A DNA stretch of 64,000 bases from Candidatus Nomurabacteria bacterium RIFCSPLOWO2_01_FULL_42_17 (GTDB taxonomy: Bacteria > Patescibacteriota > Minisyncoccia > Phycocordibacterales > UBA9973): positions 112,533-176,532 of the forward strand of contig MFVE01000005.1 of the NCBI GenBank assembly GCA_001785985.1. Direction: 5' to 3'. Shown piece by piece: positions 14,215 to 14,901 of this stretch. A program made the translations under genes and the position numbers. How positions within the stretch are numbered: the first letter of the stretch is position 1; each line of letters starts with the position of its first letter. The notes below the pieces were generated by a model. That model made no database searches. It was not told the origin of the DNA and saw nothing but the letters and a program-made list of their open reading frames with translations.

Positions 14215-14901
14215 TTATTTTAACATTTTTTCAAATTCTTTCGGCAATGGCGATTCCACTTTTATAATCTTATCTTTTAGATTTTTGAATTCTATGGACT
14301 TTGCATGGAGAGCCATGCGAGATATACCTTTCGGACAGGGACTGTCAGGATTGTAAAGTGAATCGCAGACAACGGGATGATTTAAATATTTCATATGAAC
14401 GCGAATCTGATGTGTCCTGCCTGTTTTTGGTCGCACTTCTAAATAAGTGAAATTTTTTATTCTCTTGATTACTCTATATTCCGTTATCGCTTCCCTCATT
14501 TCTCCCCTAGCTCCCCGGCCAGACAAATATCGGCGGAAATCCCTCGGACTGCGACCAATTGGTTTATTTATTACTCCTCGATCATTTCTCACAGATCCAG
14601 AGACAATCGCCACATAAATTTTCTTCACTTCCCTATCCGCAAATTGCTTCTTTAAAAATTCGTGCGCTTTTTTATTTTTCGCTAAAAGCATCACCCCCGA
14701 TGTCTCGAAGTCTAATCGATGCACTATTTCTAGTTTAGGATATTTTTTAAAAAACAAATCCAGAATGGTTTTTTCCCCGCCTGCAACGCTATGCGTAGCA
14801 TTGCGGGCAGGTTTAATTCCTTCTCTGGGGTGCACTAAAATACCCGAAGGTTTATTTATCGCTAAAATATTAGAATCCTCGTATAAAACTTTTATTTTCA
14901 T
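14215..14901 (-). CDS. RluA-family pseudouridine synthase
   Basis: HRLDFETSGVMLLAKNK (catalytic Asp motif); KTGRTHQIRVHM; it carries the short family-A palindromic element in frame. Confidence 0.85.
   Translation of the reverse strand: MKIKVLYEDSNILAINKPSGILVHPREGIKPARNATHSVAGGEKTILDLFFKKYPKLEIVHRLDFETSGVMLLAKNKKAHEFLKKQFADREVKKIYVAIVSGSVRNDRGVINKPIGRSPRDFRRYLSGRGARGEMREAITEYRVIKRIKNFTYLEVRPKTGRTHQIRVHMKYLNHPVVCDSLYNPDSPCPKGISRMALHAKSIEFKNLKDKIIKVESPLPKEFEKMLK
14775..14811. repeat. Family-A GC-rich palindromic element, short 37-bp copy, in frame inside the rluA-family gene
   Basis: CCCCGCCTGCAACGCTATGCGTAGCATTGCGGGCAGG. It equals the murB copy at 10007-10078 minus a 36-bp internal segment, and both copies are flanked by T-runs. 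Confidence 0.7.

Follow-up and report, generated by a model that had tools for sequence, protein, structure and literature searches.

A 36 bp in-frame palindrome in rluA of a Nomurabacteria genome, its relatives across bacterial phyla and a possible link to GIY-YIG nucleases

A 36 bp palindrome lying in frame within the rluA gene of Candidatus Nomurabacteria bacterium RIFCSPLOWO2_01_FULL_42_17 is very probably an inserted element that has been propagated repeatedly. We analysed it in a 64 kb window, by which we mean the whole stretch of DNA under study; the RluA and MurB proteins encoded there both match the source organism at 100%. As the best overall explanation, we find it somewhat probable that the palindrome is a miniature mobile element without cargo, mobilized in trans by a GIY-YIG nuclease. 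The kind of element is already known, namely selfish palindromes inserted in frame. The features that appear to be newly seen are the 36 bp unit, its letter-identity across phyla and its link to a GIY-YIG enzyme of the UPF0213 type; the first-pass annotation had foreseen neither of the last two. A literature search that included the literal DNA and peptide strings returned no description of the element.

Structure of the element in rluA

The first-pass annotation had placed a palindromic element of 37 bp at 14775–14811. The 37-mer CCCCGCCTGCAACGCTATGCGTAGCATTGCGGGCAGG on the forward strand is indeed present and palindromic; it is the sole match in the 64 kb window at up to three mismatches, and 0 of 100 dinucleotide shuffles contained a match. 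The length has to be corrected, however. The repeated unit comprises 36 bp (14776–14811), and the C at 14775 is flanking sequence that is absent from the murB copy. When 82 related copies are compared, conservation ends exactly at CCTGCCC...GGCGGG, and the wider superfamily shares the ends CCYGCC...GGCRGG. The coding strand of this palindrome, which we call family A, is the reverse strand of the window and reads CCTGCCCGCAATGCTACGCATAGCGTTGCAGGCGGG; its 12 in-frame codons, from CCT GCC CGC AAT to GTT GCA GGC GGG, are translated as PARNATHSVAGG.

The two 18 nt halves of the 36-mer are inverted repeats, so the unit is bounded by terminal inverted repeats. As single-stranded DNA, it is predicted to fold into an imperfect hairpin, with −12.6 kcal/mol for the coding strand (z = −4.0) and −11.3 kcal/mol for the other strand (z = −3.2). 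The tetranucleotide GTAG occurs in the central loop (GCGTAGC) only and never at the hairpin foot. A search of positions 9500–16500 with Rfam covariance models (E ≤ 1) matched tRNAs only and left the element unmatched. Strict regular-expression searches of the window for the hairpin and its termini recovered few family members, and a sliding-window fold gave 47 strongly structured stretches compared with 11–15 in shuffles, a set that mixes terminators, tRNAs and several palindrome families.

The insertion site among rluA orthologs

The host gene (14215–14901, reverse strand) encodes an RluA-family pseudouridine synthase of 228 residues (PF00849). The insert lies between Lys30 and Glu43 in the peptide stretch IKPARNATHSVAGGEK, that is, between VHP (residues 23–25) and the catalytic HRLD (residues 61–64), and its 12 codons keep the frame, as the first reading of the sequence had stated. 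RluA orthologs at 75–83% identity range from 202 to 282 residues, and many have 216, which equals 228 minus 12. In the insert-free orthologs L001 and L002 the site reads AGC AAA|GAA AAA ACA, and in the window it reads ATT AAA|(36 nt)|GAA AAA ACC; relative to these orthologs, the element is a clean 36 nt insertion at the codon boundary AAA|GAA. The same junction holds another palindrome in L005 (peptide CCCGCCTCGACTCGCGAAGGCTCGTCGACGCGAGGCGGG) and a longer, nested version of that palindrome in L006, and some further orthologs have decayed-looking inserts there. The first-pass annotation had proposed such a comparison and had named a uniform site, with a protein conserved across relatives, as the outcome that would count against mobility. 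The orthologs at 75–83% identity vary at the site, by presence and absence as well as by replacement.

A predicted AlphaFold model of RluA, calculated from the ortholog alignment, has a mean pLDDT of 80.5. Values below 50 occur only at residues 20–43, with the insert included, and a helix follows at residues 46–53. Since the sole segment of such low confidence contains the insert, the inserted peptide is most likely an unstructured loop.

The ortholog alignment also contains a second insertion hotspot, between VLKRF and FTYLE, which is empty in the window (about 14450–14460). The inserts of relatives at this hotspot reach about 55 residues (e.g. P0009 and P0014), and their peptides are typical of translated GC palindromes.

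The nested copy in murB

The murB gene (9575–10738, reverse strand) encodes 387 residues and is thus 50 residues longer than the insert-free orthologs of 337 residues. It contains a composite copy of 72 bp (10007–10078, reverse strand) with the peptide PARNAT-PVRNDSRSDSGR-HSVAGG. The left 19 nt of the 37-mer, CCCGCCTGCAACGCTATGC, recur without mismatch at 10007–10025 and the right 17 nt, GTAGCATTGCGGGCAGG, at 10062–10078, and 36 extra bases part the two arms. Expressed in terms of the 36 bp unit, the outer half at 10007–10024 (18 nt) is identical to 14776–14793, and the other outer half at 10061–10078 (18 nt) is identical to 14794–14811. The inner unit of 36 nt (10025–10060; CCCGTCCGCAACGATTCGCGTAGCGATTCGGGCAGG on the coding strand) is located exactly between nucleotides 18 and 19 of the outer copy, at its dyad centre. 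This inner unit matches family A at 28 of 36 positions in one orientation and at 26 of 36 in the other, and 20,000 shuffles reached no more than 23 of 36; its orientation is probably opposite to that of the outer copy.

The murB copy can be read as the rluA element into whose dyad centre another member of the family has been inserted. The earlier description of the rluA copy as the murB element minus its central 36 bp is exact, as the outer 18 + 18 nt are identical. Likewise, the suggestion that the core is the mobile unit agrees with the 36 nt form and sharp ends of most related loci, and the internal expansion proposed for murB can now be specified as a complete second 36 nt family unit. MurB orthologs provide a graded series at one nucleotide position, GAA AAR|AAT AAR, which is empty in L212, holds an 18 nt remnant (CCTGCCCGCCGTGGCGGG) in L211 and a simple 36 nt variant (CCTGCCCGCAATGCTTCGCATAGCGATGCAGGCGGG) in L210, and is occupied by the nested 72 nt form in the window. 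This series supports the 36 nt core as the unit and the internal addition in murB. Besides the murB copy of the window, at least seven other loci among the 118 genuine ones listed have inner inserts exactly at the centre; these differ from the murB insert, and all of the lengths are multiples of three.

Two further GC-rich palindromic inserts of other families lie in frame in murB on the reverse strand, at 10455–10509 and about 9785–9826. Their peptides are APTPQRVGVPTESVGKD and PSDAPALAGKGG, and each is present in some MurB orthologs and absent from others.

Distribution across bacteria

A scan with the near-exact pattern GCAAYGCTA...TAGCRTTGCRGRC, with one genome per species, gave at least 120 loci, 118 of which are genuine. 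The two matches set aside, L073 (Methanothrix) and L115 (Alistipes), lack the conserved ends and are chance matches. The exact 36-mer is found in at least 56 of the 118 genuine loci listed (32 in Patescibacteria, 19 in PVC bacteria and five in others). Grouped by record title, with taxon labels as written on the records of the metagenome-assembled genomes (MAGs), the loci are distributed as follows. Patescibacteria of many classes have at least 56 loci, at least 32 of them with the exact 36-mer, in loci of 32–53% GC; PVC bacteria (Verrucomicrobia, Lentisphaerae and Kiritimatiellia) have at least 39, with the exact 36-mer in at least 19 at 50–64% GC. Records labelled Gammaproteobacteria contribute at least 11 loci (exact in at least three, 43–44% GC), those labelled Bdellovibrionales at least four (exact in at least one, 37% GC) and unclassified records at least eight (exact in at least one, 38% GC). 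The three positions of the exact 36-mer that do not form Watson–Crick pairs are kept in every taxon group. Several PVC contigs with the element have a length of 150–250 kb, and this speaks against CPR DNA that was binned wrongly.

The scan pattern is near-exact and the conservation measured within it is partly ascertainment, while the element ends lie outside the pattern: it leaves seven bases uncovered at one end and three at the other, and these show about 95% conservation, with a random base composition farther out. Regarding the flanks of the related copies, the bias is weak (few T at −1 and few A at +1), with no target consensus beyond it and no extension of the palindrome outwards. Matches expected of a target-site duplication (k = 1–6, 95 copies) stay inside the range obtained from 500 permutations of the flanks.

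About 40 of 96 copies, including those in rluA and murB, lie inside long ORFs, as judged from ORF calls that are crude for the related loci, especially in GC-rich genomes. For 39 copies in long ORFs (36 nt or nested form), the frame used is PARNATHSVAGG in 25, PACNAMRSIAGR in six, LPAMLRIALQAG in four and PPATLCVALRAG in four. The skew is strong (chi-square p = 5e-7), and the two frames that contain TAG are used by none. Copies with a length that is not a multiple of three (loop variants of 37 and 38 nt) lie outside long ORFs in nine of ten cases. Sharp ends, frame filtering and centred inner inserts together indicate a discrete unit that has been inserted repeatedly and then filtered by selection. 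As for the genomic surroundings, 22 of 109 copies have a tRNA gene no more than 400 nt away, and the GIY-YIG ORF is missing from some of these places.

In PVC genomes, the family A unit is often found inside another, longer repeat or palindrome (L011, L035 and L100; L016 and L036; L087), and nesting therefore also runs in the opposite direction. L011, L035 and L100 belong to one genome, Lentisphaerae GWF2_57_35, and share the flanks cgcttcgcgtagcga...tgcgcaggcgggcgaagac. Phages were considered as a general carrier and discarded, with one irregular match to the family A pattern and one relative of the nuclease in 2.9 million viral contigs.

Association with a minimal GIY-YIG nuclease

Clustering of the ORFs in 861 kb around the 120 loci listed yields a single enriched neighbour family, a protein of about 79 residues present in at least 13 loci; the other families, all of them housekeeping, reach at most five. 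With the ORF directly beside the element, the count is at least 10–13 of the 120 loci listed, and the window is not among them: its 64 kb contain no GIY-YIG gene of this clade. The protein consists of nothing but the catalytic GIY-YIG domain (PF01541, E = 6.6e-14) and has no DNA-binding domain. A profile of the nuclease compared with solved structures is nearest to the UPF0213 proteins BH0048 (1e-13) and EF2693 (7e-10), followed by SLX1 (1e-5) and then I-TevI (4e-3). On this profile similarity, the nearest characterized relatives of the nuclease, a member of the UPF0213/YhbQ group, are the Slx1 structure-specific endonucleases.

At least ten loci share an architecture in which a duplicate of a tRNA 5′ end, split by the palindrome, is followed by the GIY-YIG ORF and then by the intact tRNA gene. 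The duplicate is 18–25 nt long, and the palindrome lies about 12–35 nt upstream of the start codon of the ORF. The tRNAs concerned are Gln, Val, Ile, Met and Arg, and ARAGORN finds the downstream tRNA genes intact. These cassettes occur in Daviesbacteria, Roizmanbacteria, Saccharibacteria, Nomurabacteria, Curtissbacteria, Collierbacteria, Giovannonibacteria, Kazan and others, with the palindrome in both orientations (6 versus 4) and at varied positions within the tRNA duplicate.

The association was also examined free of palindrome ascertainment, in 80 metagenome loci picked by GIY-YIG homology alone. A CCYGCCYG...CRGGCRGG palindrome lies within 150 nt of the ORF in 27 of the 80, many of these palindromes being 36 nt long, and no such palindrome occurs in the other 144 kb of these 80 loci. 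In L145 and L171, the nuclease ORF separates the palindrome into its two arms, which puts the ORF at the centre, where murB has its inner unit; L171 also has a protein-coding gene that is broken, at the palindrome ends, by the complete unit of ORF and palindrome. Around more distant relatives of the nuclease, another inverted repeat, CCCCGTGAAATA...TATTTCACGGGG, forms the borders, with the upstream motif in 32 of 80 loci and the inverted downstream copy in 30 of 80. Bounding by inverted repeats in compact units therefore seems to be a general habit of the nuclease family. The bracketed loci include L139, L151–L154, L163, L175, L198, L202 and L204, and what is bracketed resembles a compact insertion sequence that carries a GIY-YIG gene. 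At least some of these units interrupt genes for four-helix-bundle proteins that resemble the '23S rRNA intervening-sequence protein' (SNIAEGxGR).

Individual cassettes add further detail. In L051 (6859–7462), the tRNA-Val 5′ duplicate, the family A palindrome and the GIY-YIG ORF are tandemly duplicated at 100% identity over 307 nt, and L063, from another class, has a homologous cassette at 85% identity. In L084 (about 3680–3750), a family A copy splits a duplicate of the tRNA-Pro 5′ half of roughly 35 nt. The intact tRNA-Pro follows about 100 nt downstream with no ORF in between; the locus resembles a cassette in decay whose nuclease gene is gone.

Close GIY-YIG homologues beside the element are confined, among the loci listed, to Patescibacteria-like loci and one labelled Gammaproteobacteria. 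Among the at least 39 PVC loci listed, a GIY-YIG gene is found only at L126 (Verrucomicrobiota), where it has 36% identity and is about 250 nt away. Nuclease similarity and palindrome type co-vary weakly in a sample biased by ascertainment (rho = 0.33, p = 0.04), and we give this correlation no weight. A RAYT or IS200/IS605 partner is not favoured for these loci: tblastn with approximate Y1/HUH TnpA sequences gave no match in the related loci, and no such family appears among the neighbours at the 120 loci listed.

Possible mode of propagation and alternative explanations

In the explanation that we favour, the 36-mer would be the minimal, cargo-less derivative of units that carry or accompany the UPF0213/YhbQ GIY-YIG gene of about 79 residues, and the parent units would hold the nuclease gene or another palindrome at their centre. 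Acting in trans, the nuclease would recognize an extruded DNA hairpin or cruciform and cut there. Slx1 enzymes recognize and cut branched DNA. The preferred entry points would be the dyad centre and the hairpin-prone DNA of tRNA genes, and the host would finish the insertion by repair and ligation. The rluA copy would have entered at the AAA|GAA codon boundary without target-site duplication, and it would persist because its 12 codons contain no stop in this frame and encode a hydrophilic peptide, placed in a disordered segment clear of the catalytic HRLD. The identification of the GIY-YIG nuclease as the mobilizing enzyme is tentative, and we lean slightly to the doubtful side on it. GIY-YIG enzymes are not known to form a covalent DNA intermediate, and therefore no known chemistry accounts for a clean 36 nt cut-and-paste; the downstream tRNA is intact, so classical homing with disruption of the target does not fit. 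The palindrome–nuclease link is correlative: palindromes and nuclease cassettes might both favour DNA that lies near tRNA genes or forms hairpins. Where one nucleotide position in rluA or murB is taken by different palindromes in different lineages, old occupancy with later overwriting, perhaps by conversion or by homing from palindrome to palindrome, accounts for the pattern no less well than a succession of new insertions. A bolder proposal is that the 36-mer is the smallest member of a new class of prokaryotic, hairpin-bounded mobile DNA without target duplication, moved by a nuclease-only enzyme of the Slx1/YhbQ-like GIY-YIG type, about 79 residues long, that recognizes hairpins or cruciforms and enters their tips, including tRNA-gene DNA, and spread horizontally between Patescibacteria, PVC bacteria and others; we put it forward as a possibility that is more doubtful than probable.

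The palindrome could also be selfish DNA of the RPE or REP kind spread by another enzyme, or by host replication and recombination, with the nuclease found beside it only where the two occupy the same tRNA-proximal or hairpin-prone spots. We judge this unlikely, although several observations favour it: in-frame palindromes in conserved genes are known from Rickettsia, the window has no nuclease gene, L126 with its distant homologue stands alone among the at least 39 PVC loci listed, and some of the 22 tRNA-proximal copies lack the ORF. Such an independent spread is at odds with the enrichment of no other family in the 861 kb around the 120 copies listed and with the failure of the rough tblastn with Y1/HUH transposases. 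It is also hard to reconcile with the 27 palindromes within 150 nt of the ORF, against none in 144 kb of flanks, or with the two nuclease ORFs inside split palindromes. Current mobility could be absent altogether, if each site received one ancient insertion and gene conversion among CCYGCC/GGCRGG palindromes then kept the copies uniform, so that the identity of the rluA and murB copies reflects concerted evolution. The junctions AAA|GAA (rluA) and GAA AAR|AAT (murB) do hold different members in different lineages, although the flanks have no target consensus, and some orthologs have decayed-looking inserts. Nevertheless, conversion would still require first insertions into many unrelated genes and intergenic DNA, it leaves the cross-phylum identity unexplained, many orthologs have clean empty sites, and 18 nt arms are very short conversion substrates. 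Taken as the whole explanation, it seems quite improbable to us.

Selection for a function in RluA and MurB, either as a surface peptide or as a regulatory mRNA or DNA hairpin (in pausing, mRNA stability or termination), would suit the stable hairpin, and intergenic copies followed by T-runs (L070) could be terminators. The same 36 nt are nevertheless found in unrelated genes, in four frames, on both strands and between genes, and are missing from close orthologs; compensatory changes are absent, the same mismatches being kept everywhere, and Rfam gives no match. A functional module is thus very improbable. An artefact of assembly or of the library, or else a stray CRISPR repeat, is suggested by the occurrence of all matches in metagenome-assembled genomes and by the length of 36 nt, which is typical of CRISPR repeats. 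The matches come, however, from many studies and assemblers and from contigs of up to 779 kb, the frame bias means that selection has acted on the element, and orthologous sites form a series of empty, remnant, simple and nested states. Unlike CRISPR repeats, the element occurs as one copy per locus and in no regularly spaced array, the only double copy being the tandem cassette duplication. We give an origin of this kind almost no weight.

Comparison with known systems

Returning to the mobile-element reading, the element resembles in function the Rickettsia palindromic elements, which reportedly measure about 100–150 bp, occur only in Rickettsia and have no linked enzyme. They share with the present element the in-frame location of a palindromic repeat in conserved protein genes, a tolerated extra surface peptide and presence or absence among orthologs. 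The element is set apart by its size of 36 bp and by its Patescibacteria and PVC host range, being GC-rich in an AT-rich host; it also recurs letter for letter in different phyla, can nest within its own centre and is associated with a GIY-YIG gene. REP and REPIN sequences are similar in being dispersed imperfect palindromes of about 35 nt in many copies, with a presumed enzyme gene flanked by repeats and no target duplication. REPs are extragenic and lineage-specific and have GTAG or GTGG at the 5′ hairpin foot, and the RAYT (Y1/HUH) gene is flanked by its own repeats. The present copies, in contrast, lie inside genes as well and have no GTAG at the foot, and the associated enzyme belongs to another nuclease superfamily; ORF clustering showed no RAYT gene at the 120 loci listed.

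The GC clusters of yeast mitochondria and the double-hairpin elements of Allomyces mitochondria are organellar and eukaryotic. They resemble the present system as short GC-rich palindromes in AT-rich genomes that insert in frame in genes and nest in each other, with free-standing GIY-YIG ORFs. The sequences differ, and we know of no description of a tRNA-duplicate architecture or of cross-phylum identity for these mitochondrial elements. The very small dispersed repeats of cyanobacteria are said to be tiny, non-autonomous and capable of nesting, all of which applies here. MITEs make target-site duplications and derive from IS elements with a DDE transposase. The present element shares with them the terminal inverted repeats and the existence of cargo-bearing forms, its arms with optional cargo resembling a MITE and its parent IS; unlike a MITE, it has no target-site duplication, and a derivation from a DDE transposase is not seen. 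Lastly, the GIY-YIG homing genes (I-TevI, Seg) match the cassette-bearing related loci in having a free-standing ORF beside a conserved tRNA target with a duplicated target segment. The cassettes differ from them in that the nuclease consists of the catalytic domain of about 79 residues only, and the target tRNA is intact, with only its upstream duplicate of 18–25 nt being interrupted.

If the mobile-element reading is correct, a 36 bp sequence would be an active mobile unit that reshapes essential proteins (RluA, MurB and many others) in reduced CPR genomes, and it would account for some of the numerous short, GC-rich insertions that give CPR proteins their unusual look. The large and uncharacterized UPF0213/YhbQ set of minimal GIY-YIG proteins would then be the engine of a mobile element, with a mechanism unlike that of DDE, HUH or serine/tyrosine transposases. 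The letter-perfect sharing between Patescibacteria and Verrucomicrobia, Lentisphaerae and Kiritimatiellia would mark recent inter-phylum DNA traffic, possibly including traffic between CPR episymbionts and the hosts they live on, which common copies could help to follow. On a conservative reading, the element would still be a clean new example of selfish DNA turned into protein sequence.

Other features near rluA

An ORF of 224 residues adjoins rluA (14917–15591, reverse strand) and has a weak HTH_7 match only. L004 has an ORF of equal length, 224 residues, downstream of rplS with a faint LAGLIDADG_3 match. Most relatives have a gene of 567 residues between rluA and rplS, and the gene order in the window differs. 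Directly after tRNA-Arg, at 15827–15874, there is a perfect 20 bp AT-rich hairpin, ACCAAATTAGAAAAAACAAA...TTTGTTTTTTCTAATTTGGT, which is probably a bidirectional terminator. Further along, four AT-rich leaders of 50–90 nt, TTGTAATGATAATAT...AATATGTTATACT, are spaced at about 3 kb (19328–19377, 22198–22296, 25401–25499 and 29009–29107); they look like a repeated promoter region ahead of paralogous genes.
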